A DNA stretch of 64,000 bases from Thermoproteota archaeon (GCA_030550585.1 JAUQPB010000001.1:674525-738524); one strand, 5' to 3'. Counted from the stretch's first letter, positions 3,009 to 64,000 are shown. The notes: generated from the sequence alone by a model not told the origin. Numbers and translations are program-made.

Positions 3009-3172
3009 TGCAACCCAGCCCAGCTGTAGTTAGTTGAATAGGGAAAAAAGTTTTTGAATGCAAGTTGTGGAAGTCCATTTTAGCATGTCCACTAGTTGAA
3101 AAAGTTTTCTTCTGCTTGATTTGGTAGCAATTTTAAATATATAGAGAATGCAACAAAATCTTTGGTGCAAAC

Positions 3173-5415: not shown

Positions 5416-5543
5416 TTAAAAGCAGCCACTCCAATAACTGGACACAACATCTCGATTTTTATTCCCAGGCTCATGAAGTATAGTATTGAACATTCGGCTG
5501 CTTTAATCTGTCAGAAGCTATGGAGATTCTCACAAACTGTCCA

Positions 5544-6539
5544 TCACTTTTGTTCTATGTATGTACATACTGTTGGCAGAGCCTCTGCTACTATACTCTC
5601 TATCTTGTCTATTATGCCATCCAGTTTAGCGTATATGTTTATTGTTGTCGGATATGCTAATAGTGTATAATACTCTCTCGCTATTTTTGCTCTCGACCCC
5701 TGCAACTCTCCTTTTTCATGATATGCCAAAGCCCTTATGTTTATTTTGAATGGCAGTTTTATCACTATTGTTGCTACTAATGGTATCGGTTTTGACAGCT
5801 CTACCCCTAGTCTTCTACTCAGATAACTGATAACCTCAACGACTTTCTCCACTTCGCTAGCTTTCGACGATACATCTACTTTGTTTTGGGTTATCTGCAC
5901 CCCTAGTCCATGGATCTTTGTTGTTATATACTGCAACTTTCCAATGGATTTGATTTCTGCTCCAAGTGTTTGTGAAGCATATGCTATGTCTATTTGGTTT
6001 CTAAGGGGTTTTGACACCCATCTAACAAGGGTTTTCCCCCTACACCCTCTAATCTCCTGTATAAGTGCATAGACAGATGATGTTACTGAAGAACCTTCAT
6101 AACCTTGAACAACAGACTCTATAGCCTTTATTATCTCTTGAGGCTCTCGACCAATTCTTCTAAAACATCTATATGTAGCCAATCCAGCTAGCCCCGCCAA
6201 ATCATATGCTCTCGCCTCGTGGACATCTATCTCATCTGCAAGCCTCTTCCTAAGAATCCTCCCTATTATCTGAGCCCCGTCAGAGCCCCAAATACCACTT
6301 AAAACGCTTTCAATCTCAGAGTAGCTAGTGCCACACAAGCTTCTCTTCAGATATAGCTTGAGAAGCTCTACAAGACCAGGCACAATGCTATTTATAATCC
6401 TCTCAACAGCCTCTTCATCAGGACATGCATCAACATTCCACGACACACCATCTGAAAACTCTAGAGGACTCTCATCGACAACCTCACCAGTCTCAGAATC
6501 AACTAAAAAGCCCTCTCTAGTCCTAATTTTCCTGCCCAT
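5544..6539 (-). CDS. Hypothetical protein (331 aa), no confident family
   Basis: Long ORF with protein-like composition. The overlapping plus-strand ORFs are low-complexity shadows. Only a weak helical segment (LATYRCFRRIGREPQEIIKAI) recalls cyclin/TFIIB-fold helices. Confidence 0.5.
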   Translation of the reverse strand: MGRKIRTREGFLVDSETGEVVDESPLEFSDGVSWNVDACPDEEAVERIINSIVPGLVELLKLYLKRSLCGTSYSEIESVLSGIWGSDGAQIIGRILRKRLADEIDVHEARAYDLAGLAGLATYRCFRRIGREPQEIIKAIESVVQGYEGSSVTSSVYALIQEIRGCRGKTLVRWVSKPLRNQIDIAYASQTLGAEIKSIGKLQYITTKIHGLGVQITQNKVDVSSKASEVEKVVEVISYLSRRLGVELSKPIPLVATIVIKLPFKINIRALAYHEKGELQGSRAKIAREYYTLLAYPTTINIYAKLDGIIDKIESIVAEALPTVCTYIEQK

Positions 6540-6677
6540 TGGATCACACTATCCTCTGCAATCAGAAAACAGAGTCTTATGCCGAATATAAGCACACTGG
6601 TTATTATTGCTCCCTGCGAAAGTTTTATCTAGCCCCCACTGCAATAGAATCCTTCTAAATAAGAGTGTTGACACAGG

Positions 6678-6998
6678 GTGGCAGCTTTGGACGCGGTTAT
6701 CGTGGAGAGAAACGGTTTTGTAATAGCTATAAAATCTCTTGATGGCGGTGTTAGAGAGGAGGACATTCCGCTGGTGATCAAAGCGGTTGAGACATTTCTA
6801 AACCAGCCGCTGGGGCATGCCACAAGCAGCTTTCCTGGAAATGGGCACAACAACGGCAAAAAGCTGAATGGCAATGGAGATACAAGAAAAGGTGTTTTAT
6901 ATTCGCCATGGCTTTTGACATGGCTTGCTGAAGCAAATGGCTATAGAGACCATTTCCACGCAGTTCTAAGTGTTTTTGCAAATAGCAAAAAGCAGTAG
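6678..6998 (+). CDS. Hypothetical small protein (106 aa); N-terminus weakly Roadblock/LC7-like
   Basis: GTG start, divergent from 5544-6539. Segment LDAVIVERNGFVIAIKSLDGGVREEDIPLVIKAVETFL fits the roadblock-type pattern only loosely. Competing antisense ORFs are Cys/His-rich junk. Confidence 0.35.
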   Translation: MAALDAVIVERNGFVIAIKSLDGGVREEDIPLVIKAVETFLNQPLGHATSSFPGNGHNNGKKLNGNGDTRKGVLYSPWLLTWLAEANGYRDHFHAVLSVFANSKKQ

Positions 6999-7179
6999 TC
7001 TTGTTTGTTTTCCATATTAATGCAATAATATAGAAATTTGCAGAGGTTTTTATTTGGCATAGACCACAAGTTGTCTAGATGCAGAGCTCTTTAATATGTA
7101 AATAATCTATGTAAAAACGTTTTTGTTTTCGCCATGAAATGCTTGTTCAAAAAATTAGTTTAGTGTTGCACAATTTCAA

Positions 7180-9198
7180 TTAGATTTGGGTTTTTATGAA
7201 TCTTAGTGCTATTGCTATGGCTATTATAGCTAATACCACTATTGCAAGGGTTATTATGTTGAATTTTTCCGATGTAGTGGGTACGACACTTTGTGCGACT
7301 GTGCATGGCGTTTGATATGTGTATACTTGTGTTTGTGTTGTGGTAACAGTTCTCTCTATTGTTACATAGCTATAGCTATAGACTATGCATGTACCCAAAC
7401 CCTGCTCAGCTCCCTTTGTTTGTGTAGCAGTTGTAGTGGGCTGAGCTAGTTGTTGTGCTGTCTCTATCTCTAGTATATTGTATATCGAAAGAAGCATTGA
7501 AAGCCTTGCCAAACTATATATCCTTGTCCCGGTGTCTCCAGTCGAGCTAAGCTCTAAGAGTAGTGGCACATCAATAGGTATTATATCGTCTAGTTTTGTG
7601 AGCAGAATCTCGACGGTGCTGTTCAATGCTTCTATAGATGAGTTCATATTCTCCATAAACATTGATAGCAGTGTTAGATACATGTATCCTATGGAGCTTA
7701 TTCCAAGGGCTATTCTCTCAATAGATGTGTTCACAGTCGACATTATGATATATCTAGCTTGAGCTTCTGAGAATATGTCTTGGGGTATCGATACAGATGA
7801 CGAAAACGCTATGATGTAGCTGTATATATTTTGTGCAAGTGCGGATATGACTGTTGCTAAAGAGTCTAGGTCTACCGGCTTTATGTAAACATTTGTCGAT
7901 ATATTCAAGCCTGTTAGGTTCTGCCAGAACATGGCTGTGTAGAGCCTTGCTGAGGCAAGTGCAAGATACTGTGTAGAGGTGTCTACATACCCTGTTGAAA
8001 GGCTGTTGTTCAGATATATATATGCCTCGTATAGCCTATCAAGAGTGTTTAAAATTGTTGACAGTTGTGATAGATCTATTGTCTTTCTAGAGATGGACAC
8101 AACATACGCTATATCTTTGTATATCTGGTTCCTGAGACTATCTGCAACACTTGGCACATAGCTGCTATTCAAAAAGGCATTTAGCAGGTAAAGCCTCCAA
8201 TATGCATAGATGAGTGCTTGGAAATATGAAGAGGCTGCTGAGTATAGCTGTCCCTGGCTTTCCAAGGCCTTTCCACTAGCGATATACCCGTTTAGGCTAC
8301 TGTCTATACTACTCAAAAGCTGGCGAACATAGTAGTTGTGAACTCTTGGCTCTAAAGCCTTGCTTTCATCAACTGTTCTATTGATCTCTTTCTTAATATC
8401 TGTAATCATATTCTCTAGTTGTGGTTTTAGAGCATCGTATATCTTGCTGATTTTATTTTCATAGCCTCCGACTGTATATGAGAACAGCCCATTTGTGAAT
8501 ATATGGAGAGCCTCATAGACATTTGCAACAGGTTTAACAACAACGCCTAGCCTAGCACCATAGGAGACGAGATCAACAGTCTGTGTGACAGTTCTATAGA
8601 CAGTCATAGGACCTATTCTTTGGGCCACTACAGTATATATAACATCTGTTGTCTGTCCATAGGGAACTAGAAACACCTTCGCACCTCTCGATGCAGCAGC
8701 GCCGAGCTTATAGTAAACCCCTCCAACAGGTCCGATACTACCATCAGGCATTATCATACCTGTCATAACAACACTCTCATTTAGTGGAAGCCTTAATAGC
8801 GCAGCTGCAAAGGCAACAGCTGTTACGCCGCTAGCACTAGGACCTCCGATTATGGGAGAGTCAGACCTTATAGAGGCGAAATAGTCGCAGCTCCAGAAGC
8901 TCTTATTTGCAACAGCGCTAGCAACAATTGCAGCAACTCTTGTTGATGCCTGCAGATCTATTTCTGATAGCGGATATGTCTCGACATATACATGTCCTTG
9001 GCCAGGGCAAACAACTCTCACGTAGAGATCTGCTGCAACGCCTATGTACGAGTTGTTTGGAAGCTGTGAAACGGCCACTATCGTAACATGTCTAGACTCG
9101 TCAACTGTATATCCCTGTGAAACAGTTGTATACAGCCCCAATACAAGTGCTATTGTAAGCACTGTTGATAGTATGCCATATACTCTATTAAAAGCCAT
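7180..9198 (-). CDS. Membrane-anchored extracellular Lon-like (S16 fold) serine protease, archaeal COG1750-type
   Basis: N-terminal signal/anchor helix. Lon proteolytic-domain pattern GGPSASGVTAVAF...MTGMIMPDGSIGPVGGVYYKLGAAASRGAKVFLVP (Ser-Lys dyad positions). Long helical middle, Thr/Gln-rich stalk, and a C-terminal TM helix with a basic tail. Confidence 0.75.
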   Translation of the reverse strand: MAFNRVYGILSTVLTIALVLGLYTTVSQGYTVDESRHVTIVAVSQLPNNSYIGVAADLYVRVVCPGQGHVYVETYPLSEIDLQASTRVAAIVASAVANKSFWSCDYFASIRSDSPIIGGPSASGVTAVAFAAALLRLPLNESVVMTGMIMPDGSIGPVGGVYYKLGAAASRGAKVFLVPYGQTTDVIYTVVAQRIGPMTVYRTVTQTVDLVSYGARLGVVVKPVANVYEALHIFTNGLFSYTVGGYENKISKIYDALKPQLENMITDIKKEINRTVDESKALEPRVHNYYVRQLLSSIDSSLNGYIASGKALESQGQLYSAASSYFQALIYAYWRLYLLNAFLNSSYVPSVADSLRNQIYKDIAYVVSISRKTIDLSQLSTILNTLDRLYEAYIYLNNSLSTGYVDTSTQYLALASARLYTAMFWQNLTGLNISTNVYIKPVDLDSLATVISALAQNIYSYIIAFSSSVSIPQDIFSEAQARYIIMSTVNTSIERIALGISSIGYMYLTLLSMFMENMNSSIEALNSTVEILLTKLDDIIPIDVPLLLELSSTGDTGTRIYSLARLSMLLSIYNILEIETAQQLAQPTTTATQTKGAEQGLGTCIVYSYSYVTIERTVTTTQTQVYTYQTPCTVAQSVVPTTSEKFNIITLAIVVLAIIAIAIALRFIKTQI

Positions 9199-13139: not shown

Positions 13140-13547
13140 CTATAGCCTCTTTCTCTTTATATACTCCCTATACAGCTTATCTACTAAATAACTGTTAACA
13201 TATTTGCCATGCGGTCTCAAACCACCTGAGAAGCTCTTTGGTATGTGGAGAAGCTCATGGATAAACACCTTAATTTTCTCCTCAAGTGAAAGAGGATAGA
13301 AATTCCTCTCTATAACCTCTATGACATACATAGGCTTCAATCCCAGTACAAACCTCCAAACAGATGGGAGCATATATATCCTTGCAATTGCTTTTGATCT
13401 ACACCCCCTACAAACAACAATTCTAACACTGTCAACATCTATATGAGAAAAATAATCCTTTAAGGTATTCACAACATCTCTTAGGAGAATTTCAAGGCTT
13501 TGATCATAGTAGTGCTCGGTTCTTGCCAAGGCTGTTTTCCTAAACAA
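13140..13547 (-). CDS. Predicted zinc metallopeptidase, SprT/Wss1-like (COG4900-type)
   Basis: HExxH motif followed by a third His (FIHELLHIPKSFSGGLRPH). Basic C-terminus. 135 aa. Confidence 0.6.
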   Translation of the reverse strand: MFRKTALARTEHYYDQSLEILLRDVVNTLKDYFSHIDVDSVRIVVCRGCRSKAIARIYMLPSVWRFVLGLKPMYVIEVIERNFYPLSLEEKIKVFIHELLHIPKSFSGGLRPHGKYVNSYLVDKLYREYIKRKRL

Positions 13548-13549
13548 TT

Positions 13550-14836
13550 TTATTTAATATCATAGATTCTCTCAGCGTTCTCGTGCAGAAGCCCATTTGC
13601 AATCTCGATTGCTAGTTCCATGTCTATGTAGCCCTCATATACCATCTCCGATAGCACATAGGCTATCTGCCTCTTAGCCAACGCAGCCTTTCCATACACC
13701 CAGTCAGCCACATACGCATCGCTGAAAAAGCCGCATGACTTGTTGTATGGGAGCATCTGGAGTCTTAGCCTAAGATACTCCCTTATTATCGATGGGTACA
13801 TCGAATACCACCAGTATCCACTTACAAAGACATTTCCATAGTTCTTAGCCATAACTGTCAATGGGTGCAACAATCTCATGTCAGCTCCAATAACATCGAA
13901 TTTGACGTTGGGGTAAGAGGCAAATATATTTGCAAGATTCAGCAACTGATCGTAATTAACATGGGTTATGGCATAGTCTGGCGGTGAAGCGCCTGGAACA
14001 GGCCTCTCAACACCTATCATAAACTGGAAAACCTTTTTGTATTCATCGCAAAGATCTAGAAACTTCGTGAGTATATACGATGATAGAAGCTGCTTGGCTC
14101 TCAGGTCTATGTGACCTCTAGCCCTCAGATCCTTTAGATAGAGCTGTATCTCCGATGGTCTAACAAATCCGTATAGCTCCTCTGGAAGTGGACTTAGAGC
14201 CACTGCCACAATCTCGCTTTCAAATTTTTTGAATAGAGCTTCTATAGCCCTATCCAGATCCTCAGCCGTCTGTATCTCAATACCCACCGTCTTCTCTAGG
14301 CCAAGTAGACTATCTTTGCTTAGATACGTCACTAAATTGTCTATTCTAAGCACACCAGCAAAAACATCTTTTCTATAACCCCCAATATCTGCAAACGGAT
14401 TTAGAGTCAGAAACGATTTTCTGACTCTGCAAACCTTTGTAAGCACCTCGAAAGCCCTATTCTCATCGCCAGCTCTACTCTCTATAGCGCTAACCACATC
14501 CCTCCAGTTGCTCTCATCAATAGCTTTAACATCTAGGTTGTACAAATCCTTCAGAATCTGTCTAAGAGACCAAAACGTTGCTGTGTTCCTGATGTATCTA
14601 AAGTATTGAAGTGCATATGCAAGTCTATCAACACCCTTTCTCCTTTCAAACTCGTTTCTATTCATACCAGCTGTGGAAAGCTCGGTAACAATGTAGTGGT
14701 AAAACAGTATATCTTCGAAGCTAGAGTGAGAAAGCTTAGAGGGATTCAAATGCTCATGTATATCCACAAGAGGGGTCTCCAAAACCTCATCATAAATCTC
14801 ATTAAATATCTTATCAAAACTCGTGTTCACCACCAA
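13550..14836 (-). CDS. Amidohydrolase-superfamily protein, uronate-isomerase-like
   Basis: N-terminal metal-ligand-like HxH (LVDIHEHLNP) followed by an HY-rich helix, as in the UxaC-like subgroup. 428 aa. The specific activity cannot be told from the sequence. Confidence 0.5.
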   Translation of the reverse strand: MVVNTSFDKIFNEIYDEVLETPLVDIHEHLNPSKLSHSSFEDILFYHYIVTELSTAGMNRNEFERRKGVDRLAYALQYFRYIRNTATFWSLRQILKDLYNLDVKAIDESNWRDVVSAIESRAGDENRAFEVLTKVCRVRKSFLTLNPFADIGGYRKDVFAGVLRIDNLVTYLSKDSLLGLEKTVGIEIQTAEDLDRAIEALFKKFESEIVAVALSPLPEELYGFVRPSEIQLYLKDLRARGHIDLRAKQLLSSYILTKFLDLCDEYKKVFQFMIGVERPVPGASPPDYAITHVNYDQLLNLANIFASYPNVKFDVIGADMRLLHPLTVMAKNYGNVFVSGYWWYSMYPSIIREYLRLRLQMLPYNKSCGFFSDAYVADWVYGKAALAKRQIAYVLSEMVYEGYIDMELAIEIANGLLHENAERIYDIK

Positions 14837-46125: not shown

Positions 46126-46211
46126 TAGCTACAGTTTTCTAGTCCACTAAAACATAAAGCAGATGTCTTGCAATCCAGTTAAACTGTTTTTTTATGGAGA
46201 AGATAATTCTT

Positions 46212-46250
46212 TGGCGTGGCGACCGGGATTTGAACCCGGTTAGAACTGCT
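46212..46250 (-). other. Orphan tRNA 3' half (T arm, acceptor 3' strand, discriminator, encoded CCA); att remnant or split-tRNA half
   Basis: Minus strand reads ...GCAGU UCUAA CCGGG UUCAAAU CCCGG UCGCCAC G CCA. No matching 5' acceptor strand (GUGGCGA) lies within 300 nt upstream. Confidence 0.7.
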
Positions 46251-46534: not shown

Positions 46535-46771
46535 CTATTTAGCCCTCTTCTTTTTCTCAAACCTTTGTACTATTGGCATTACAATAGACATAAACGCTGC
46601 CCACACAAGGGCTTGAAGTATTGAGTAGTTGAGTGGCTGTGGCTCTATATACCTCACATAGTGTGGGAGAATACTTAATACTAGCACATAAACAGGAATT
46701 GCCACAATAAGACCGCTAATAAACCACAAAACACATAATTTGATATATAATTTTAATTGAAAAAGCTTCAC
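46535..46771 (-). CDS. Small membrane protein (78 aa, 2 TM)
   Basis: Two hydrophobic helices and a basic C-terminus. Starts 1 nt after the stop of the upstream ABC ATPase ORF. Confidence 0.4.
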   Translation of the reverse strand: MKLFQLKLYIKLCVLWFISGLIVAIPVYVLVLSILPHYVRYIEPQPLNYSILQALVWAAFMSIVMPIVQRFEKKKRAK

Positions 46772-46772
46772 C

Positions 46773-47429
46773 TTACCACCTCAGCCAAGCGGGTAGCTTA
46801 GCGAATATCCTAAGACCACCAAGCCAACCACCAATTTTAGCGAGTAGAGGACCAGTAGCGGCGCCTATTGCAACATCTCTATCGTATTTTTTAATCAGGT
46901 CTCTAACATATATGCTTTTCTCAACGTCTAGTCCGGTTGTTGGCTCGTCTAGTATTAGGAGTTTTGGTTTGGAGGCTAGAACAGTTGCGACGGCGAGTAT
47001 TCTTTTCATGCCCTTGCTATATGTTCTAATAGGCTTTTTCAAAGTGTTTCCGAGATCGCATATTTTGGCAGCTTCTTCAACAGCTTCTTCAAGCTTTGTA
47101 CCACCAAACCTCAGAGAAAGCATAAACTTTATGAAGTCATAGCCAGTCAAATCTCTGTATGCACCAGCCTCTTCAGGCAGGTAGTTGATCATAGACCTAA
47201 CACGAAGAGGCTCTTTAACAACGTCAACACCATAGACATAGACACTACCTCTAGTAGGCTTAATCAAAGTAGCTATAATCCTAAGAGTAGTTGTCTTACC
47301 ACTCCCATTAGGCCCAACCAAAGCATATATCTCACCATCGCCAACAGTAAAAGAAAGGCCATCAACACCTACAGACCCCCTACCATAGACCTTAACAAGA
47401 TCCCTAACAACAACAGCAGACACAACCAC
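46773..47429 (-). CDS. ABC-2/DrrA-type ABC ATPase, C-terminally degenerate (no H-loop)
   Basis: Walker A GPNGSGKTT, signature YSKGMKRIL, Walker B LLILDEPTTGLD. The last ~50 residues contain no His and end in a Trp/Gly/Leu-rich tail. Confidence 0.75.
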   Translation of the reverse strand: MVVSAVVVRDLVKVYGRGSVGVDGLSFTVGDGEIYALVGPNGSGKTTTLRIIATLIKPTRGSVYVYGVDVVKEPLRVRSMINYLPEEAGAYRDLTGYDFIKFMLSLRFGGTKLEEAVEEAAKICDLGNTLKKPIRTYSKGMKRILAVATVLASKPKLLILDEPTTGLDVEKSIYVRDLIKKYDRDVAIGAATGPLLAKIGGWLGGLRIFAKLPAWLRW

Positions 47430-47524
47430 CCAAACAAAAGGCCGTCAAAACCCAGATAAACGGTTACAAAACACCAAACAACTGCCTAAACATCCCAAAA
47501 CACAGATAGGCCAAATACATAACA

Positions 47525-47965
47525 TTAGCTAACACAATACTTTCTAGCCAACAATGTGAGGATGGCAATGATGGCCAGAAGAAGTGCAAATACGTAGACC
47601 AGGAAGACAATGATAGCAAAACTGATATCTGTATTGAGTAGTCTCTCTAAAACTAGTTTCGCATACCATGCAAATTCAGGCGATAGTACGCCTGTAATAG
47701 GCACAACTAGTGTATATAGTTTGAAGCTGATCCTCATCACTCCAAGCCCACAAAATAATATAAATGTATATGCCATTGCTAGGGACATTAATAAAAGCAC
47801 TGCAAACGCCACCCAATACCCAAAAGCCTTTATCAAAAGCAATGAAAACCAGGGAAGGGAAAACCCAACAGCCACAACTATTGCACCATCAATAAACAAA
47901 AGTAGGAGCACAATCTTCAAAGACAGCTCTTTCCCCGAAACCTGCTGCACCATACAATACATCAC
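47525..47965 (-). CDS. Polytopic membrane protein (146 aa, ~4 TM)
   Basis: Hydrophobic helices throughout. Same strand as the neighbouring cassette genes. Confidence 0.5.
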   Translation of the reverse strand: MMYCMVQQVSGKELSLKIVLLLLFIDGAIVVAVGFSLPWFSLLLIKAFGYWVAFAVLLLMSLAMAYTFILFCGLGVMRISFKLYTLVVPITGVLSPEFAWYAKLVLERLLNTDISFAIIVFLVYVFALLLAIIAILTLLARKYCVS

Positions 47966-48161
47966 CTAAATATTGAATATTAATAAAAAATTATTAAGTT
48001 CTTATCTCTGTCCCCTAGCCAAAGGACATTGCTTTTACATACAAACCACTTGTTCTACCATGATTCACTGTATATATTGTCTATATTGTATTGTGCCACG
48101 ACGCAAAAACCAAGATATTTATTTTTCGCTGGTTTGCTAACAAGAAATGTGATAGGTGTGG

Positions 48162-48644
48162 CTATGGGATGTTTTTGCGGTTTTGGCACACCGACAACTT
48201 TTTGAATATAAACACGAAGATCGTGTTCATCAGTATAAGAAAGGCGAGGAAGGGGGCCATAACAGTAAATGATTTGACAATGTCTTCAGCAAGGTCTTTG
48301 ACGTCTGTGAGCTCCTCTAAGCTAAATGTAACGCCATTCACAGCCACAACTGCTAATGCAAGAATGAGATACTCCACAAAATTACTTATTTCGAGTGTGA
48401 AAGGTTGACAAAATGCTGAAACTGCTACCAACAATGCAAGTACATACATCAATGACATGGCCAGGAACAGCATTATCAAAAACGTTGGCCAAGAACCCAA
48501 AGAATCGATAAGTAAATAGATAAACACCCTTGAAAATAAGACAATTGCTATAAACAATGCAGCGGCGATCAACACAACACCAAGCAACTTAATCTCTTTA
48601 TTTTTAAGAGGTTGCCGAGCCATAAACAACACCAAAAAAGTCAA
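48162..48644 (-). CDS. Polytopic membrane protein (160 aa, ~4-5 TM)
   Basis: Hydrophobic helices throughout. The antisense ORF 48091-48408 is judged a shadow. Confidence 0.5.
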   Translation of the reverse strand: MTFLVLFMARQPLKNKEIKLLGVVLIAAALFIAIVLFSRVFIYLLIDSLGSWPTFLIMLFLAMSLMYVLALLVAVSAFCQPFTLEISNFVEYLILALAVVAVNGVTFSLEELTDVKDLAEDIVKSFTVMAPFLAFLILMNTIFVFIFKKLSVCQNRKNIP

Positions 48645-48659
48645 TTAAAAATAAAATTT

Positions 48660-49337
48660 TTAAGTTTTTGTTGTTTTGTTTTTGAACCAGTAGTTTGCTA
48701 GTGTGAAGACATAGCTATATCCGCTTCCATCTGGTGTTAGTTCGCCGATTGTAGTAACATATATTCTGTGGGTGGTGCTAACATTTCTGGTTAGCCCTAT
48801 CAGGATGTAGTTGGCTATACTGTCGCTATAGTTTGCCTTCACCTCTCTCCAGTACATGACTGTGTTGCTGTCAATGCTCTTGTTGTATACTGGGCCTAGC
48901 CACAGACTCCAGCTGCTATCGTTAGACATGTATTCGAGTCCCATGAACAGACTGTTGTTGACATATATGTATATGCCTGTACTGTTAGAGACTGTAGAGA
49001 CGTTTAGCTGCCCAGATCTAATCTCGTTTCTTATGTCAATAGCGATCTTAGTTAGATTCAGCACCAAGTTGCTGTCTAGATAGGGCTGGTTGACGAGAGC
49101 CATAGAGCCGTTTCTATAGATGTATAGTGTGTGGAAAAGCTCATACCTCTCAACCTGGTCTAGAGGCATGTTGCTCAAAGCCATAGCCAAAATCGATAAC
49201 ATTATAAGCTTGAATTCGTCAGACCCATCGTCAGCTCTAACAACTCTGAAGACAGCTGACACTGGAGCTAGGCTATAGATTGTTATGGCTACTGCAACCA
49301 CTATTGCTATTGATTTGAACAACAGATTTCTACTCAT
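48660..49337 (-). CDS. Signal-anchored extracellular glycoprotein (about 225 aa)
   Basis: Preferred start MSRNLLFKSIAIVVAVAITIYSL (signal/anchor). Beta-rich, with many NxS/T sequons (NLT, NVS, NST, NNS, NDS, NKS, NYS, NKT). Confidence 0.5.
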   Translation of the reverse strand: MSRNLLFKSIAIVVAVAITIYSLAPVSAVFRVVRADDGSDEFKLIMLSILAMALSNMPLDQVERYELFHTLYIYRNGSMALVNQPYLDSNLVLNLTKIAIDIRNEIRSGQLNVSTVSNSTGIYIYVNNSLFMGLEYMSNDSSWSLWLGPVYNKSIDSNTVMYWREVKANYSDSIANYILIGLTRNVSTTHRIYVTTIGELTPDGSGYSYVFTLANYWFKNKTTKT

Positions 49338-50192
49338 TTGAAACACCAAAGAGTGGTAGGAGTATCCTCGATATATATATCGCTCAAAAAAGAGTTGAAA
49401 CAAACACGAAAAACAATTGAACAACACAAAACATAAACATATAAAGAGTATTACTGCGAGATAATATGGCGCTAGAATAGATATGTTAGCTGCATCGAAT
49501 CTTTGTACATAGCACTAGCTATAATTATGTATTTACATTGGCGAGTCATCGGCAGGTGTTTGCAATTTGTGCATACCTAGGCTACGTTAAAACAGGTGGA
49601 AGTGGAGGATATATATCAACAGCATACCACGGATAGCCAAAGCATTATTCTTTTTACTTTGATCGGTGCACCAACCTTTTTTTAAGTTTTTAGCCAGCTT
49701 AGCTATTCGCGCCTTAGCTTCCCCACCCTTACTGCTTGTACGCATCATATGTTTAATTAAATTAAATCTTTTGGAATTTACTAAGGCCTTGAAGAATCTA
49801 AGAAAACTCCTTTAGAGTACATGTTGATAATGCATATTACTTCTATTAGCCATAGGCCTAGCCTATGCTTCGACATTCAATGTGTTGATAAGGATGTCAG
49901 GCAACATATTAGGTTAACGACCTAGCTGCAAAAGAGCCAAAACAGTACTTAGGGTCTTCTAGAGCTGTCTCAGCCACCACCATCCATAATCCTTTGACAG
50001 CTGCTTTCCTTGAGATTCTGTGTGTTCCTGGTGGCCGGGGTCTACTCACCTTCTAGACCTTTTGAAGTTGGATAGTCTGAGAGAAGTCGATATGGGTACC
50101 CCCACGCAGTGTCCACAGGAAAAATTAAGAGTCTTTGTGTAGTCGCAACGCATTAATGGGAGCCATCTACATGTTTGATGGATAAGCAAAAC

Positions 50193-57723: not shown

Positions 57724-57802
57724 GGGCCCGTAGCTCAGCCAGGATAAGAGCGCCGGCCTTCGGAGCCGGTGGTCGGGGGTTCGAATCCCCCCGGGCCCGC
57801 CA
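57724..57802 (+). tRNA. tRNA-Arg (anticodon UCG), CCA encoded, no intron
   Basis: Folded by hand: acceptor GGGCCCG/CGGGCCC, D stem GCUC/GAGC, anticodon stem CCGGC/GCCGG with loop CUUCGGA, variable UGGUC, T arm GGGGG-UUCGAAU-CCCCC, discriminator G, CCA. Confidence 0.9.
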
Positions 57803-57820
57803 CAAAATATTTATAGAATT

Positions 57821-57833
57821 GATGGTATTTCCA
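57821..57833 (+). repeat. Left copy of direct repeat GATGGTATTTCCA (right edge of attL)
   Basis: Exact 13-mer also present at 62186-62198. Confidence 0.85.
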
Positions 57834-57958
57834 ATAAGTTTTATATCTGCCCCCTTGTCACAAACACATGGGAGTTCACGGGACAGTGCATACGTGAAGA
57901 CCAGACGTGGCAAGCCCTGCTCTACCTACATGGGCAGAGAGGGTATAGTGTCAAGGAG

Positions 57959-58273
57959 TTGGCACGTTGGCTTGACATCGGCAAGTCCACTGTCCACAAG
58001 GTTCTGCAGGGGAGCGACGACCACTGCCCGGAACTGCGCATTAAGCTCCACGAAGTATTCTCCGAGGAGCTGCTCCGCATACTGAAGGGCCTTCAGATAC
58101 TCCGCCACTACGGCTTAGTTGATGAAGAGGAGCGCTTGAATAAGACCGTTGTCTTAGCCGTATTCAACGCGCTAATGCAGGATGAGACATTAAAGGAAGA
58201 CGTACTCAACCATTTTCTCAAGTGCTATAAGCAAGACATAATGGAGAGGATATGCGAGCAACCCCCTCTCTAG
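57959..58273 (+). CDS. HTH-containing ORF, probably a 5'-truncated gene (candidate Int(C)-type remnant)
   Basis: The ORF track starts at TTG 57959, but the frame is open back to 57734 (through the tRNA) with no ATG/GTG/TTG. HTH-like segment GYSVKELARWLDIGKSTVHKVL straddles the nominal start. Confidence 0.45.
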   Translation: MARWLDIGKSTVHKVLQGSDDHCPELRIKLHEVFSEELLRILKGLQILRHYGLVDEEERLNKTVVLAVFNALMQDETLKEDVLNHFLKCYKQDIMERICEQPPL

Positions 58274-58488
58274 GAGACTCAAACATCCTATCAACCAATA
58301 TGCACGAGAGCTCTCGTGGATAATCACTACAGCTCCAAGCCTACGTCATTAACCAGTAGCGACATCAGCCAACTAGGGAAACTTCTTTATCCTATTGAAA
58401 GTGTTTCTAGTTTTTTGAACGATTTCAATTTAAAGTCTTATATACCAGGCACCTATAGGATAGGCGGTTAGATGAAGGTGGGTGTAGC

Positions 58489-59922
58489 TTGATGGAAGTG
58501 GCTAAACATAAACATGTTTCCTTTTTTACTGTTCTCATCTTTGGACTGTTGCTCGTTTCTTCTCTCTCATATGCTACACACGTATATACATCCTCTGATA
58601 TGGTTGAAGAACACCAGTTGAAGTTGCTATACAATTTTGAAGGCTACGCTATCTTAGCCTATAGTAATCTCACACCGGTGAAAGTCAAGTTTGAACTTGT
58701 GGAGCGGCCGCTCGAGTACATCTTTTTTTCTACTGACTCGAGGGCTCTCATCGACTACGTTAAGGGCACTGACATCTACAGCAATATTTCTCGTATTTTA
58801 GAAGGCGTAGAAATGGTTAAAGTGATATTGTCTTGTAAATACAACGTGAATAGTAGCGACATAATGGTTTCGCGAAGCAACGATACTATAGTAATAACAT
58901 TGCCAGCCGGCCCCTGCATTACTGCCGAGTCTCTACCAGTCCTACTAGGGGTGAAGGGTGGGGTTTACGTTGGACATAGTGGTAACGATACGGCCTTTGT
59001 CAGAATTGTGGTAAATGCTACACCACTGATTAGAGAGGGCTGGAAGATAGTGGCAGACGACCCGTTGCTGAGAGCACTCTTATGCGGCTCTGTAGAAGAT
59101 GTAGCCTGTACTCCAAGAACTATAGAGCTCTCAAGCCCACTGTATAAGATCGTGGGGAGCGAAGTCTATGAAGAGTCGGAGAAAGTGGGGAGCTTCTTCC
59201 CATTCTACATTGGCTACCCCAGAAACGCTACAGAAGTGAAGTCTGTGGTTGAGAACAAGGCAAAGCTATACTATTATAACATAAGTGGCTCAGTCTACAT
59301 GGTCAAGTACCTTAAGAAGTTCGCGAAGTACGGTCAAATGCCTGAAGTCAGAGAAGTCTCAGAAATACATGTATCTCTAATAGACCCCTACTACATATCT
59401 CAAGTGAAAGCCGCAATGGAGCGCCTTGATCCTCTAAGCTTAAGCTATACTTCCATTAAATACTTTATCCCCAATATTTTTGCTATTGCGAATCCCGATG
59501 AAAAGTTGTTTCGGTTAGTACAAGACTTTATTGTAGATGTGTTGCTAGGCAAGAAGCCGCAGATAAGCTTTACTACGACAGAGAGCACGGAACGACCCCC
59601 GTATACAAGTTTCGTAGGCACGAATTCAGAGCCTGAGGTGCAGTACATTTACAGCTATCCAATTGCCATGAGGTTGGTACCGTTAAAGGTTTTGGCACCT
59701 GGATCCGCAGGCAACTCCTCGTTCTTTCTCCACATAATATTCTTGGAGAACATTCACTACGAAGAAATCGACCCATACTCTATTTACATAGGCTACTACG
59801 AGGTTCCACGCGAAGCTGCTGATTGCTGGCTATGCAGGTGGATACCGATAGTTATCACCTTGTCTGCTCTGATCGCTACTGTAGCACTGATTGCTTACTT
59901 TAAAAAGAGGAGATCGTCATGA
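58489..59922 (+). CDS. Surface-anchored extracellular protein (477 aa)
   Basis: N-terminal signal peptide (VSFFTVLIFGLLLVSSLSYA), beta-rich body with several NxS/T sequons, and a C-terminal TM helix plus KKRRSS tail. Confidence 0.6.
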   Translation: MMEVAKHKHVSFFTVLIFGLLLVSSLSYATHVYTSSDMVEEHQLKLLYNFEGYAILAYSNLTPVKVKFELVERPLEYIFFSTDSRALIDYVKGTDIYSNISRILEGVEMVKVILSCKYNVNSSDIMVSRSNDTIVITLPAGPCITAESLPVLLGVKGGVYVGHSGNDTAFVRIVVNATPLIREGWKIVADDPLLRALLCGSVEDVACTPRTIELSSPLYKIVGSEVYEESEKVGSFFPFYIGYPRNATEVKSVVENKAKLYYYNISGSVYMVKYLKKFAKYGQMPEVREVSEIHVSLIDPYYISQVKAAMERLDPLSLSYTSIKYFIPNIFAIANPDEKLFRLVQDFIVDVLLGKKPQISFTTTESTERPPYTSFVGTNSEPEVQYIYSYPIAMRLVPLKVLAPGSAGNSSFFLHIIFLENIHYEEIDPYSIYIGYYEVPREAADCWLCRWIPIVITLSALIATVALIAYFKKRRSS

Positions 59923-60758
59923 GGGTTCTGCTACTAAATAAGATAGCGTTAGTATTCCTCGTAGTAGCACTAACTCTTACTGCATACGTTGCTACCGAGC
60001 CTGTAGCTGATATTGCATCGCGTTACTACGGCGTTGAATTCAGCAGGTTCTATAGTTTCGAATATATTCGTGTTACTGAAATACTGACTAGAGCGATTGA
60101 CGGCCCTCTACCGATCATTAGTAGAGGACTCACATCAAGTACGACGTTCAACAACCTCCTCCAAACGGCCTCTGATAAGTACCCTATTATTAGTAACGTG
60201 TACCGTGGAATAATCATTGGAGACGCCATCAATAGGTTTTACACCTTCAGCCTTCCAATGGCAATTATCTTTTCATCGATATTCTACGTGGTAGTCCTAG
60301 ACGCTATGAGTATACGCAGAATACTCCAGGTGATAGCGTCCATAGGCATAAGGAGGTACTGGTTCAACATCGTTATTCTCGCACTAATGTCAAGCCTAGC
60401 TTATGTAGCGACACTTGCTCTCCCTGTGTCACTTTATGTATGCCCCTCGTGTAGCTTGTGGGATAAATTCGTGGGTTTCTTCTCCTTGTTTACGCTGTTC
60501 TCGATAGTTCTCTTGTCAGAAGCTCTCGTATATGTGCTGGTCTGGAATGCCTTGCCAGCACTACTCGTGGGTATGTCAACCTCCATAGTTTTCTTAAGCT
60601 ACCCGGAGCAAGTGGCGGAAATTCTCAAGGACTCTATAAGACTGTTTGGATTAGAAGTTCAAGACCCCATATCGGTTCATACACTTCTAAACCTGGTCTT
60701 CTTGTTACTACTGTTTCTTGCAACATACGTAGTAATTGTTAAGAGGGAGGTGTATTGA
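59919..60758 (+). CDS. Polytopic membrane protein, ABC-2-type permease-like (279 aa)
   Basis: N-terminal TM, a large first loop, then about 5 more TM helices. 4-nt overlaps with both neighbours. Confidence 0.55.
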   Translation: MRVLLLNKIALVFLVVALTLTAYVATEPVADIASRYYGVEFSRFYSFEYIRVTEILTRAIDGPLPIISRGLTSSTTFNNLLQTASDKYPIISNVYRGIIIGDAINRFYTFSLPMAIIFSSIFYVVVLDAMSIRRILQVIASIGIRRYWFNIVILALMSSLAYVATLALPVSLYVCPSCSLWDKFVGFFSLFTLFSIVLLSEALVYVLVWNALPALLVGMSTSIVFLSYPEQVAEILKDSIRLFGLEVQDPISVHTLLNLVFLLLLFLATYVVIVKREVY

Positions 60759-61144
60759 GGAGGATACACTACTACTATCTCGCATGGATAGCTATACCCC
60801 TAGTCATACTCTCCACATCCCTTTTTGCTATTCACAATCATCTCTACTCAGAGACGTACTCCTATAGCTTGCAACTTGTCAGCAGTGAGGGTTATACTGA
60901 CGGCTTCCTCGCCTATATGCCACTAACCGGTACACTTCAAGTAAGCCTGGTGTGTCAAGGAGGGGGAGATATTAAAGTTAACGTAAGTGTGGTTGCCGAG
61001 ACGAGGACAAGCCTACACCTTTCCTGTAACAATACTGTTACAGTCAAGGTGGAGAAGCCTGGACTCGTCATGGTTTATGCGAGAGTGGAAGAGGTTAAGG
61101 GTGGAGGTGTAGAAGCATGGCTGAGAGCACAGGTAAAGCCGTAG
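60755..61144 (+). CDS. Membrane-anchored small beta-sandwich-like protein (129 aa)
   Basis: One N-terminal TM helix followed by a beta-rich ~95-aa domain. Translationally coupled on both sides. Confidence 0.45.
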   Translation: MRRIHYYYLAWIAIPLVILSTSLFAIHNHLYSETYSYSLQLVSSEGYTDGFLAYMPLTGTLQVSLVCQGGGDIKVNVSVVAETRTSLHLSCNNTVTVKVEKPGLVMVYARVEEVKGGGVEAWLRAQVKP

Positions 61145-61971
61145 TAGAAGTTGTTGACGTCGGAAAGAAGTATGGAGGTCGCTGGGTTCTGAGACATGTA
61201 AAGCTGCTTGTCAATCCCCGTGACAGGATTGTAATTATGGGACCTAATGGAAGCGGTAAATCAACACTCGTGAAAATACTAATGGGGCTCACAAGCCCGA
61301 GCGAGGGCTTCGTGAAAATACTCGGCGAGCGCGTTGGGAAAGCCGGCTTCGACAAATTGAGGCGTAGTATAGGGTATATGCCGGAGAAAACCACGCTTCC
61401 AGGCGAGATGAGAGTTGAGGACTACCTCTCTCTATTTGCCGAGTTAAGGGGGTGCACCTATGATGATTTAGCTGAATCCCTGGGGCTAAAAGCATTCTAC
61501 AAAGCCAAGATAAGTACCTTGTCGCAGGGCTACCAGCGCAGAGTAATGCTTGCTGCTGCACTACTTGGCAAACCACGGCTCATTATCCTCGACGAGCCAT
61601 ATGCCAATCTCGACATAGGCTCGCGATTTGCAATAGACGAGCTTCTCCAGAGCTACTCCAAGGACCTTACACTCATTATGACTACCCACGTGAAACCTGG
61701 TCTAAGTGGTTTTAGAACAGTACTGTTAATGAACGGTAATGTCATCGGCAGCGTACTGTATGAAGACGACTATGTTGAAATCAGCCTAACCTGTGGAAAT
61801 AAACGTGAAGTACTTAGGGTTTACGCCAAAGACAAGGGGCACTCAGAAAAAGTGATGGCATTCAATAAATTGATAAGAGAGGGGTGTATCATAGAAGACA
61901 TTGATGTGGTAACTTTCGAAAGCATCCTCCGCGAAATGCTATCTCATCAGGCTAAACCCACATCCTTTTAG
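61117..61971 (+). CDS. ABC-2/DrrA-type ABC transporter ATP-binding protein with an extra C-terminal domain
   Basis: Walker A GPNGSGKST, signature LSQGYQRRV, Walker B LIILDEP, H-loop MTTH. About 70-aa C-terminal extension. Confidence 0.85.
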   Translation: MAESTGKAVVEVVDVGKKYGGRWVLRHVKLLVNPRDRIVIMGPNGSGKSTLVKILMGLTSPSEGFVKILGERVGKAGFDKLRRSIGYMPEKTTLPGEMRVEDYLSLFAELRGCTYDDLAESLGLKAFYKAKISTLSQGYQRRVMLAAALLGKPRLIILDEPYANLDIGSRFAIDELLQSYSKDLTLIMTTHVKPGLSGFRTVLLMNGNVIGSVLYEDDYVEISLTCGNKREVLRVYAKDKGHSEKVMAFNKLIREGCIIEDIDVVTFESILREMLSHQAKPTSF

Positions 61972-62170
61972 CACACCACACTAGCATACCTGAGTTTTTA
62001 CAACACAAGCTCCAACATTAGGAGCAAAACTCCTTGAATACCCTGGCTGTGAGCCACTAGGCACAGTCCCGAAATCGATGCTGACAAGGAATGGGTATCT
62101 GTGATCGATATCCTCCACCCAGGCCCCGTTTTATTCACACAATCTCATTTTTTACCTGTTCAAGCCTTCT

Positions 62171-62198
62171 CTAGCCTTTGGAGCCGATGGTATTTCCA
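62171..62198 (+). repeat. Right att-like copy: decayed tRNA-Arg anticodon-arm segment fused to GATGGTATTTCCA
   Basis: CTAGCCTTTGGAGCCGATGGT matches tRNA positions 57753-57773 at 17/21. The following ATTTCCA completes the 13-mer repeat. Confidence 0.7.
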
Positions 62199-62399
62199 TT
62201 AAATAGTTCCCTGCGTATTATTCTCAATGATGCAGATAGTAATGGCTCTAGATTTTTTAGAAGATTGAATGGGGTTGAGTTCGACAGCTGAATAAACATC
62301 GCTTCTAGGGCTGTCAATCACTATTTACATGGAACGATGGAGTTAGTTATGTTGTCATGGAGGCGAAATGCTTATATATTGGTTTAGCCTGGTTTTACC

Positions 62400-62684
62400 T
62401 TGGGTGGGCTTGGTTTGGCTCTTAGGTTGAGGGTTGGGAGGAAGGGCTATATAATTTTGCCGAAGGCTGTTCGCGATGTTTTCGGTATTGATGAGGGTGA
62501 TGAGCTTATTGTTGAGATTAGAGATGGTATTGTTCTTAAGCCTGCTAAGAGGGGTGTAGACATTGAGAAACTCAGAGAGTCTCTGAGGAGGCATGTAGAA
62601 AAGCTTGCAAGTCTCCCCTCGAGAAAAGAGCCTAGGCCAGGGGAACTAGCGAAAATGTATCTTGAGGAGGAGTTTGAGGAGTGA
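62400..62684 (+). CDS. vapB: VapB antitoxin, AbrB/SpoVT-fold
   Basis: Swapped-hairpin pattern RKGYIILPKAVRDVFGIDEGDELIVEIRDGIVLKP. 4-nt overlap with the PIN gene. Confidence 0.8.
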   Translation: MGGLGLALRLRVGRKGYIILPKAVRDVFGIDEGDELIVEIRDGIVLKPAKRGVDIEKLRESLRRHVEKLASLPSRKEPRPGELAKMYLEEEFEE

Positions 62685-63085
62685 AGGTCTTCATAGACTC
62701 CCCACTTCTCATATACCTCAACACCGTAGCAGATCCCAAGACTAGGATTATCTACGAGAACTTCTATATAGATATACTGACTAGGTATAAGCCGTATACT
62801 GATGTACTCGTACTCGATGAGCTAATCCACGTCTCTAAAAAGAAGTATGGCATTCCATACAACATAACAATAGAGTTTATAGAGTCAAATGTGCTTCCAT
62901 ACATATCTGTAATAAGCCTAGGCGAAGAGGAGTATAAGCAGGCGATAAAATTCCTACTAGACTACAACCTTAAACCATCAGACTCACTCCACCTAGGAGC
63001 AATGGTCAACAACGGTATAAACACCATTGTTAGCGAGGACAGCGAATTAGATAAAGTACCCATAGTGAAGAGGTTGTGGGTATAG
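62681..63085 (+). CDS. vapC: VapC toxin, PIN-domain ribonuclease
   Basis: GTG start. Acidic PIN residues in VFIDSPLL, VLDEL, PSDSLHL, VSEDSELD. 134 aa. Confidence 0.85.
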   Translation: MKVFIDSPLLIYLNTVADPKTRIIYENFYIDILTRYKPYTDVLVLDELIHVSKKKYGIPYNITIEFIESNVLPYISVISLGEEEYKQAIKFLLDYNLKPSDSLHLGAMVNNGINTIVSEDSELDKVPIVKRLWV

Positions 63086-63227
63086 CTAAATACCCTGCAT
63101 CTCACTATTTTTGTAGAAATTGTAGAAAATCGGAAAATCCGAGGAAGTATACAAGTCGGTGTTGCTATAGTATTTCATAGGGTAACCCGTTACTGTGAAG
63201 ATAGGGTATAGTTACTTTAACTAATTA

Positions 63228-63494
63228 TTGCAGCCATACATACTATTGGTTCCAGCATTAACTGTCAGCTCAAACCATACATACAGTGTTTCGGCGATTG
63301 ATAGGTACGGCCCTGTCGCCATCTACTCCGAGAATAGTGTAGCAATATACGCGTTTGGCGAAGAGCTCTTCAACTACACCTATAGAAATGTGTATGTCTA
63401 CATCAAAAGTAACTACATTATCGAGGGTGAAGACAAAATCCAAAACTATACGATATGGTCAATAGGTATCTGCCGGCAAACCAGTATGAATTAA
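63228..63494 (+). CDS. Hypothetical ORF (88 aa)
   Basis: TTG start, Tyr/Asn-rich beta-like sequence. Overlaps the next ORF by 40 nt in another frame, so a frameshifted larger gene is possible. Confidence 0.3.
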   Translation: MQPYILLVPALTVSSNHTYSVSAIDRYGPVAIYSENSVAIYAFGEELFNYTYRNVYVYIKSNYIIEGEDKIQNYTIWSIGICRQTSMN

Positions 63495-63724
63495 ACTTAA
63501 GCACTGTAAAAGCAGATACTTGGGGAGAAGAACAAATCGCTAACCTCTTCAACGAGAAAATAGGTTATCCAGTTGTTGAAGGAGCAAAAGAATATGGTAG
63601 CACACCTCTAGTAATTATAAAAGTAATTATAAAGAATACATGGGGTATGAGGTTTGGCAAACTCATTAAGATTGCTAGGAAAGTGGCGAGAGGTACAATG
63701 AAAGAGTGGAGATTATTGAAATGA
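63455..63724 (+). CDS. Hypothetical ORF (89 aa)
   Basis: ORF with a basic C-terminus. ATGA overlap with the following ORF. Confidence 0.3.
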   Translation: MVNRYLPANQYELNLSTVKADTWGEEQIANLFNEKIGYPVVEGAKEYGSTPLVIIKVIIKNTWGMRFGKLIKIARKVARGTMKEWRLLK

Positions 63725-64000
63725 ACCCATTTGAAGAGTTCTCTAGCGGAGAATACAATGAATCGCTGATAGCTTTGGAAATCATGAAAATTGTTGAGGA
63801 AAATGGTCTGGCAAATACTGTAACCGGTGTAGGTGTAAAGATTCCAGCACCTAAAATATATGCTGTCTTAGAACTCGACTCAGATGCGCTAGAAACCACT
63901 GCACAAAGTAAACACATCAATGCAAATAAGCTAATTCAATACATCATAGACAAGCTGAGGGAAAGAACACCTGAAGAAATACTACTATCCACCATCGTTA
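63721..64000 (+). CDS. Hypothetical ORF, 3' end outside window
   Basis: ATG at 63721 overlaps the upstream stop (ATGA). The frame stays open to the window edge (MNPFEEFSSGEYNESLIALEIMKIVEENG...). Not in the ORF track because no stop is reached. Confidence 0.4.
   Translation, partial: MNPFEEFSSGEYNESLIALEIMKIVEENGLANTVTGVGVKIPAPKIYAVLELDSDALETTAQSKHINANKLIQYIIDKLRERTPEEILLSTIV

Follow-up and report, generated by a model that had tools for sequence, protein, structure and literature searches.

The window analysed here is a stretch of 64,000 nucleotides (nt) from a Thermoproteota archaeon (GCA_030550585.1, JAUQPB010000001.1:674525-738524). Near its right end, an intact transfer RNA (tRNA) gene, tRNA-Arg(TCG), is followed by the remnant of an integrase gene, here called int', by a cassette of four overlapping cargo genes and by a degenerate copy of part of the tRNA gene itself. 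The stretch between the tRNA gene and this copy, 4.4 kb in length, is treated below as one unit. The features of the unit are as follows:

57724-57802, plus strand: intact tRNA-Arg(TCG) gene (ARAGORN), integration target and left junction, on the side of the left attachment (att) site, attL
57756-57804, plus strand: att core, 49 nt, beginning with the final 3 nt of the anticodon stem's 5' strand and ending 2 nt beyond the CCA
57805-57877, plus strand: element-derived spacer from the tRNA to the integrase start, which holds the left copy of a 13-nt repeat (13-mer; 57821-57833) and a TTTTATAT box (57839-57846)
57878-58273, plus strand: integrase pseudogene int', reduced to an N-terminal helix-turn-helix (HTH) and a portion of the core-binding region (about 135 residues out of about 430)
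58274-58488, plus strand: junction and promoter region common to a relative's copy of the cassette (blastn and alignment against contigs L082 and L083)
58489-59922, plus strand: cargo gene for an orphan beta-rich ectoprotein of 477 amino acids (aa) between N- and C-terminal transmembrane helices (hydropathy)
59919-60758, plus strand: cargo gene for a 279-aa polytopic membrane protein, a putative ABC-2-like permease (hydropathy)
60755-61144, plus strand: cargo gene for a 129-aa protein with one N-terminal transmembrane segment (hydropathy)
61117-61971, plus strand: cargo gene for an ABC transporter ATPase (PF00005, E = 1.4e-29; generic match of the exporter type, GldA/DrrA/CcmA-like)
61972-62156, plus strand: 3' end of the block common to the relative's cassette, with homology ending at 62156 (..CTCATTTTTTAC)
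62171-62198, plus strand: degenerate att copy at the right junction of the unit, in which a core remnant (62174-62191, GCCTTTGGAGCCGATGGT) is fused to the right copy of the 13-mer (62186-62198)

The tRNA-Arg(TCG) gene is the sole tRNA gene called by ARAGORN in the window, and it forms an intact border of the unit. The closest relative found is contig L091 (ENA sample ERZ1669411), in which PheA is 95% identical at the amino acid level. This contig is 92.2% identical to the window at the nucleotide level over 6.7 kb that include the trp operon, pheA and an identical tRNA gene. Alignable similarity stops at 57808, 6 nt beyond the CCA. The DNA after the tRNA in L091 encodes a different integrase, similar to that of Aeropyrum pernix and broken by a stop codon and a frameshift, and the contig stops 490 nt after the loss of homology. 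The spacers of the window and L091 align loosely once an 11-nt indel is allowed. Because L091 diverges at 57808 and the two spacers align, the left 13-mer is placed in element-derived spacer. The spacing between the tRNA and the integrase gene is 57-75 nt in L091, L092 and L095. In the family, int starts 57-77 nt after the tRNA and reads away from it.

int' is unannotated. The annotated 104-aa open reading frame (ORF) beside the tRNA (57959-58273), a "hypothetical protein", is the tail of this integrase pseudogene, and in a six-frame reading the complete HTH of int' is found upstream of the TTG start of that ORF. The HTH matches of int' in six-frame Pfam searches are weak. int' is homologous to ORFs that follow tRNA genes in related contigs, and it is the only match within the window to a local hidden Markov model (HMM) of the family (E = 2e-41). 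A profile of the post-tRNA ORFs retrieves 94 proteins. Several of these are named integrase, with matches from Desulfurococcales, Zestosphaera, Ignisphaera and Aeropyrum pernix, and one contains PF16795. The closest homologue, P0211, is 36% identical to int' in BLASTP; residues 2-123 are covered and G27 is aligned to G2.

The open int' frame begins within the tRNA (57734) and runs to 58273. Before 57959 this frame contains no ATG, GTG or TTG, and an ACG (57878-57880) stands where P0211 has Met1. The integrase catalytic domain is absent from the window in six-frame Pfam searches and in searches with a catalytic-domain HMM. int' is a dead integrase gene. A preliminary description of this DNA had attributed the immobility of the unit to a deletion in its right att site. 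Because the integrase has neither a start codon nor a catalytic domain, immobility is independent of that deletion. Self-excision of the unit is unlikely, since no catalytic domain is present in the sequence.

Composition marks the region 57.8-62.1 kb as foreign. The ratio of observed to expected CpG (CpG o/e) per kb from 58 to 62 kb is 0.89, 0.74, 0.82 and 0.78, compared with a mean of 0.52 for the window. The 4-kb segment that starts at 57751 has the highest CpG o/e of the whole window (0.81; standard deviation 0.08). CGN codons account for 20/55 (36%) of the CGN and AGR arginine codons in the four cassette genes and for 9/245 (3.7%) in 11 core genes (aro, trp and pheA genes; Fisher p = 2e-10). 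The CpG-rich, CGN-using island of the preliminary description is therefore real, and an integrated element accounts for this compositional anomaly.

The right border of the unit is less well preserved. The 13-mer, GATGGTATTTCCA, is found in the window only at 57821 and 62186, and 62171-62191 is identical to 57753-57773 at 17 of 21 positions. Both observations had been made before and both hold. Missing from the right copy are the T arm, the acceptor strand, the CCA and 18 nt of the spacer. Its start is shared by four further degenerate copies of a tRNA-Arg 3' part. One is located at 46196-46237 on the minus strand of the window and one at ~8938-8988 of L082, where it is the relative's right att site (attR). 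The other two, C1 and C2, are located in L101, which belongs to the window's own genome, beyond the window end:

L101 9120-9164 (68175-68219 in extended window coordinates), plus strand: C1, 97.8% identical to a relative's tRNA-Arg(CCG)
L101 10080-10128 (69135-69183 in extended window coordinates), plus strand: C2, a CCG-like/TCG-like hybrid ending ..CCCGCCACAG

All five copies start at A|GCCT, which corresponds to 57756. Because the degenerate copies share this start, the core is placed at 57756-57804. Within the core, the copy at 62.17 kb differs from the tRNA by two CpG-destroying transitions (TTCGG>TTTGG and CCGGT>CCGAT). The remaining two mismatches (CCG>CTA) are just outside the core boundary set by the other copies. 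Changes from CpG to TpG or CpA would be the expected product of decay in a CpG-depleted genome.

The significance of this composite repeat was estimated in two ways. Of the 81-nt segments of the window, 2.9% share a direct exact repeat of at least 13 nt with the following 10 kb, and an upstream 15-mer match of at least 12/15 within 100 nt is found in 0.13-0.25% of controls. The joint chance of the composite repeat is ~1e-4. In a gapped local alignment of the tRNA and its flank against 57851-64000, the score is 42.2. This is above all 300 dinucleotide shuffles (29.9 +/- 3.3, maximum 42.0).

These statistics bear on the explanation that no mobile element is present and that an ordinary operon of odd composition stands beside a tRNA gene, with a repeat that arose by coincidence. 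Exact 13-mers are common, with 120 direct pairs in the window, and the segment contains no catalytic integrase domain and no replicase or viral gene in Pfam and PHROG/PADLOC-type scans, both of which agree with such an operon. It would leave unexplained an integrase remnant in the canonical position, the break in synteny at the tRNA end, the contrast in CGN and CpG use, the statistics of the composite repeat and the core boundary shared with other copies. The synteny break, the integrase remnant and the composition effectively refute this explanation, and its probability is very small.

The structure of the right copy is also relevant to the number of elements. In the preliminary description, att identity extended over 81 nt (57753-57833), and the right copy had been shortened by 53 nt between the microhomologies GGTGGT and GATGGT. 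Under this explanation the unit is a single element, its attR is cut by the microhomology deletion and the DNA from 62199 onward is ancestral flank. The 7 nt ATTTCCA that follow GATGGT in the right copy are the same as those that follow the sole G[AG]TGGT of the left spacer, and a single deletion is economical. A 53-nt deletion would indeed be the simplest and most economical account of the right copy, and this part of the earlier claim is kept, although the best path of the gapped alignment contains many gaps over ~62092-62224 and no single 53-nt gap. The 81-nt att site is not kept. The core is 49 nt, perfect cores in intact members of the family are 44-47 nt and end 0 to 2 nt past the tRNA end, and both L091 and C2 lose identity with the tRNA region at 57805-57808. 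The region 57805-57877, which includes the 13-mer, is the element's own spacer upstream of the integrase and is homologous to the spacer of the L091 element. In addition, the presence of more att copies 6-7 kb to the right implies that the outer chromosomal flank does not begin at 62199. A single element with an 81-nt att site is unlikely.

The intact members of the family come from a survey of 80 metagenome loci that encode an integrase of the int' type. A same-strand tRNA gene is located directly upstream of the integrase gene (int) in 48 of the 80 loci, and 32 of these 48 tRNA genes are tRNA-Arg. The types are Arg-CCG (10), Arg-TCG (9), Arg-GCG (9), Arg-TCT (4), Gly (9), Thr (4), Ser (2) and Asp (1). 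In 24 of the 32 remaining loci, fewer than 250 nt of the contig precede int. DNA after the tRNA extends for 3 kb or more in 35 loci, and in three of these (L154, L176 and L186) perfect repeats of 44-47 nt of the tRNA 3' part are found 6.2-7.0 kb downstream. The perfect repeats begin 44-45 nt before the tRNA end and finish at +0 to +2 nt past it.

Two of these loci, L154 and L186, were examined further. Between the perfect repeats, both encode an intact integrase of 415-441 aa with PF16795. Both also encode a Prim-Pol or D5_N/DUF5906 replicase and winged HTH regulators, and the integrated element of L154 spans 1522-7900. Because perfect repeats enclose an intact int and replicase genes, the native element is a small integrative plasmid-like unit in which int is whole and is located just inside attL. 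We take these intact relatives to resemble the pRN-like or pTN3-like integrated Prim-Pol or D5-helicase plasmids of hyperthermophilic archaea. No relatives of the integrase are found in IMG/VR viral contigs by single-protein and profile searches.

In L092, L093 and L094, an N-terminal part of ~230 aa is followed by the PF16795 catalytic part. PF16795 is the sole Pfam match of the catalytic part in this family, with no match of the PF00589 type, whose signature is R..YxxR..Y. As read by eye, the catalytic part shows a KxxR-like motif (KYVR in L094). An integrase of the suicidal type, with an ORF that spans attP as in SSV-type elements, was considered and rejected, since the frames between the tRNA and the int start are closed in the L092 and L095 spacers and integrated elements retain an intact int. 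The survey points to a lineage of PF16795 integrases that has a classical, non-suicidal topology.

Two further observations concern the surveyed loci. In two integrase subfamilies, a stop stands in place of the same Trp codon (..ISPETFG[W]LMEVVPSRSY..): TGA in L092 and L093, TAG in L094. The stop (6658-6660 in L092, 748-750 in L094) separates the HTH part from the PF16795 part, and the proteins P0128 and P0145 likewise terminate at this codon. Either the gene has been inactivated repeatedly at this codon or the in-frame stop is functional. Independent contigs (L096-L099 and many of L107-L186) begin inside or just before the tRNA that precedes the integrase gene. Such contig starts fit assembly-graph branching at att sites, through presence or absence of islands or through repeated cores.

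The region after the tRNA is probably an array of decayed site-specific integrative elements, of which the 4.4-kb unit is the first, tRNA-proximal member. The host is an Ignisphaera-like archaeon, and the array is at least 11 kb long and continues to at least 69 kb in the parent contig. The central claim of the preliminary description, a decayed element that targeted the tRNA gene, is borne out by int', the homology break with L091, the composition, the shared core boundary and the two additional tRNA-Arg 3' fragments past the window end. The original element would have been a plasmid-like integrative unit of ~6-7 kb. It would have encoded a tyrosine integrase whose N terminus contained an HTH and whose C terminus contained the PF16795 catalytic domain. 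Recombination of attP with the 3' 45-49 nt of the tRNA gene would have restored the tRNA and placed int ~75 nt downstream, reading away from it. Decay would then have removed the start codon and everything past about residue 135 of the integrase, as well as the replication genes, which are absent. The remainder may be described as a CpG-rich, CGN-using ABC-exporter-like operon whose first gene was itself lost. The right copy was probably once a full core, with the spacer of a related element that had integrated earlier, in tandem, behind it. That it was once followed by the spacer of a related element is inferred because it is fused to the 13-mer of the left spacer. The 53-nt deletion between GGTGGT and GATGGT would then have shortened it.

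Several results weigh against an array of this kind. The surviving core remnant is just 18 nt, and the limits of the unit do not coincide exactly with the right att copy: the match to the relative's cassette breaks off at 62156, 15 nt short of it, and a strain-level breakpoint is located at 62391, 193 nt beyond it. C1 and C2 are of the tRNA-Arg(CCG) type or hybrid and not pure TCG, so the history of the array is more than simple repeated integration into tRNA-Arg(TCG). No integrase remnant is found to the right of 62198 by six-frame Pfam searches or by the family and catalytic HMMs, which leaves the postulated second element without a gene-level trace at the junction. The tandem neighbour that had been suggested earlier is supported by C1, C2 and the 13-mer in the spacer and is not supported by any integrase trace.

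In addition, no true empty site was found. L091, the sole close relative with tRNA-Arg(TCG), contains another element there, and distant relatives have no synteny at this locus. A PheA-anchored scan of species genomes retrieves relatives with only 60-69% identity. Because pheA adjoins the aro genes in these relatives, with no tRNA nearby, they are unusable as an empty-site test. An exact scan of JGI metagenomes for the 76-nt tRNA returns no match, and an exact look-up of PheA with the longest ORF start returns no record.

The cassette is also present in L082, L083 and L095, with 94.6% identity over 58459-62155. In these contigs a fragment of the same truncated int' (77% nucleotide identity; HMM positions 96-125) is located upstream of the cassette. 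The L082-type island is ~13.4 kb long and is located between tRNA-Arg(CCG) and a decayed copy of the 3' part of that tRNA. After tRNA-Arg(CCG) it contains another truncated integrase, thiE, thiM, YHS, copA and small ORFs. Next come the remnant of int', gene 1 with the cassette, two small genes and the decayed tRNA-Arg(CCG) 3' copy. The cassette travels with integrase remnants inside tRNA-Arg islands and is not unique to the tRNA-Arg(TCG) site. Its copies are within a tRNA-Arg island and not away from any tRNA. The earlier claim that the island had become fixed is not simply correct, since a near-identical cassette is present in the tRNA-Arg(CCG) island of related contigs.

Divergence within the cassette differs from that of its surroundings. 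At third codon positions, three cassette genes are 0.97-0.99 identical between the window and L082, and core genes are 0.80-0.91 identical between the window and L091. This contrast is not securely calibrated, because the L082-type contigs and L091 are not tied to one organism. The strain contig L090 is 99.8% identical to the window over 13.7 kb. All 26 of its single-nucleotide polymorphisms (SNPs) are inside the cassette (58872-61746), and there are none in 10 kb of the trp operon, pheA, the tRNA and int'. Twelve of the 26 SNPs match the allele found in the 94.6% identical cassette copy of L082. This distribution suggests that the cassette was recently exchanged between lineages or loci.

Such an exchange could mean that the cassette block (~58064-62156) is itself the unit of movement between pre-existing tRNA-Arg(CCG) and tRNA-Arg(TCG) islands, through homologous or illegitimate recombination or through the action of a related integrase in trans. 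The right att copy at 62171-62198 would then be a leftover of the recipient island. Congruent with this are the block shared with L082 and L083, where it is 7.4 kb from tRNA-Arg(CCG), the higher third-position identity than in core genes of the 92% relative, the confinement of strain SNPs to the cassette, 12 of the 26 with the relative's allele, and the same truncated int' in both copies. The identity excess is subject to the calibration limit given above, and in the window int' is continuous with the spacer and the tRNA, as an original attL would be. As the sole explanation of the unit, movement of the block has a low probability; it is compatible with an array of decayed elements rather than exclusive of it.

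At the level of codon positions, the cassette genes are not alike. The three downstream genes are 97-100% identical to their L082 counterparts at each codon position. The 477-aa gene is ~0.92 identical at first, second and third positions alike, which suggests diversifying selection or relaxed constraint.

The cargo operon is incomplete in the window. It lacks ~700 nt at 58454/58459 that carry gene 1 (226 aa) of a five-gene operon. In L082 and L083 the operon has all five genes (83% amino acid identity for the large protein), as it does in the distant L106 (44%). The four cargo genes of the window overlap one another. The 477-aa ectoprotein has only five homologues among those found and has no match in Pfam, NCBIfam, PHROG or PADLOC. 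A Foldseek search of its AlphaFold2 (AF2) model (pLDDT 72.8) against the PDB returns nothing below E = 0.2. The 279-aa protein contains 5-6 hydrophobic segments with a long loop after the first transmembrane segment, and its gene overlaps its operon neighbours; it has no Pfam or NCBIfam match and no match to a permease family. The best NCBIfam matches of the ABC ATPase are all under the family cut-offs. Beyond this generic ATPase, Pfam, NCBIfam, PADLOC and PHROGs return nothing for the cargo.

Archaeal "dark matter islands" often contain operons of an ABC ATPase, a permease with six transmembrane segments and a diverged binding protein (Makarova et al. 2014, PMC4158269). The operon in the window is similar to the arCOG00194-type operons of such islands (PMC4158269) in gene set, orphan-like divergence and a setting rich in mobile elements. 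The window operon differs in that it contains two more small membrane proteins and lacks gene 1.

Archaeal integrases are known to target tRNA genes with att sites of 40-50 bp, to be lost after integration and to integrate in tandem (PMC8371274). The unit is an ordinary further case of the well-known tRNA-linked gene capture of archaea. As far as "gene capture in archaeal chromosomes" is presented in this review, which cites She et al. 2001, She, Brugger & Chen 2002 and She, Chen & Chen 2004, the likeness includes the tRNA border, the integrase remnant and the direct repeat of the tRNA 3' part (PMC8371274). It extends to cargo kept after mobility was lost and to several remnants at one locus (PMC8371274). 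The classic cases, as cited there, concern SSV-type int genes that are split on integration. In the family described here int is unsplit, and its death is by pseudogenisation and deletion.

The integrase itself combines properties of two known classes. The review associates PF16795 with the "suicidal" SSV, pTN3 and pT26-2 families, and it gives PF00589 and SAM-like domains for XerA/pNOB8-like families, with an HTH in some pNOB8-like integrases (PMC8371274). The family of int' is similar to the SSV type (class I; SSV, pTN3, pT26-2; PMC8371274, PMC7253208) in the PF16795 (Phage_integr_3) match of L092, L094, L154 and L186, in a match to the phrog_5127 integrase and in its target, the tRNA 3' part, with a core of ~45 nt. 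It differs from that type in that attP is upstream of the gene, int is unsplit in L154 and L186 with no int(N)/int(C) pair, and there is an extra N-terminal HTH. As in the pNOB8 type (class II, lambda paradigm; PMC8371274), int is intact beside the att site after integration in L154 and L186. Unlike that type, the family matches PF16795 and not PF00589. Like small integrative plasmids, the intact 6-7 kb relatives encode int, a Prim-Pol or D5_N/DUF5906 replicase and winged HTH regulators. The unit in the window has lost all backbone genes and contains non-backbone cargo only.

A broader proposal is that the int' family is an undescribed branch of the PF16795 superfamily, with an N-terminal HTH, an unsplit gene and a preference for tRNA-Arg, and that its dead elements have moved between tRNA-Arg loci. 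We put this forward tentatively and consider it doubtful. The left part of the core (GCCTYCGGAGCCGG) is common to the isoacceptors, so that dead elements with att copies at their borders could be movable between tRNA-Arg(TCG) and tRNA-Arg(CCG) loci and between lineages, either by a related integrase in trans or by att-to-att recombination. If true, this would explain the presence of a cassette with truncated int at different tRNA-Arg loci, the near-identity at synonymous sites between organisms that are 8% apart elsewhere, and the CCG-type and hybrid att copies downstream of a TCG tRNA.

To the right of the unit, the next segment of the array starts with a toxin-antitoxin pair:

62391-63085, plus strand: vapB (MazE/AbrB-type) and vapC (PIN) pair, start of the next array segment (Pfam)

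Position 62391 is a breakpoint at the population level. L102 (GCA_038893675.1), from a near-identical strain, is identical to the window only from this position onward. The stretch downstream of tRNA-Arg is a graveyard of integrative elements in which ABC-type membrane systems and toxin-antitoxin pairs are retained and shuffled. Contigs of metagenome-assembled genomes (MAGs) break in or near the array, and two W-type MAG contigs end at 62516 and 63181.

The identity between L102 and the window runs for more than 10 kb from 62391, and different DNA is present to the left (L102 1-2927). This DNA contains an adh_short fragment, a PDDEXK_10 gene and a PIN/MazE pair. In L005, the gene immediately after pheA encodes a protein 64% identical to this PDDEXK_10 protein. 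No tRNA or att sequence that would identify an empty-site variant is present at the left end of L102. The L102 arrangement may be an alternative or an ancestral one. Far beyond the window, ~3.8 kb past C2, L102 contains a weak stretch similar to an integrase catalytic domain (13456-13622, E = 0.013).

On the other side of the trp operon, 46196-46237 on the minus strand (with flank to 46169) contains a tRNA 3' fragment, CCGGGTTCAAATCCCGGTCGCCACGCCA, that is not called by ARAGORN. The spacer after this fragment is homologous to the spacer after the tRNA in L091 (..AGAATT.TCTTCT.TCCATAAAA..TTTAACTGGATTGCA). From these similarities, the fragment is probably another att remnant. No integrase remains are found near 46.2 kb by six-frame Pfam searches or two local HMMs. 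The MAG contig JAVYOM010000014.1 begins at 46188. A low-GC block of membrane-protein genes with an ABC ATPase (46773-47429) is located at 46535-49427 on the minus strand, between the aro operon, which ends at 45931, and trpB (50247). In the distant relatives L002 and L005, pheA follows directly after the aro genes. Because pheA adjoins aro in these relatives, both the 46535-49427 stretch and the location of the trp operon appear to result from rearrangement or insertion.

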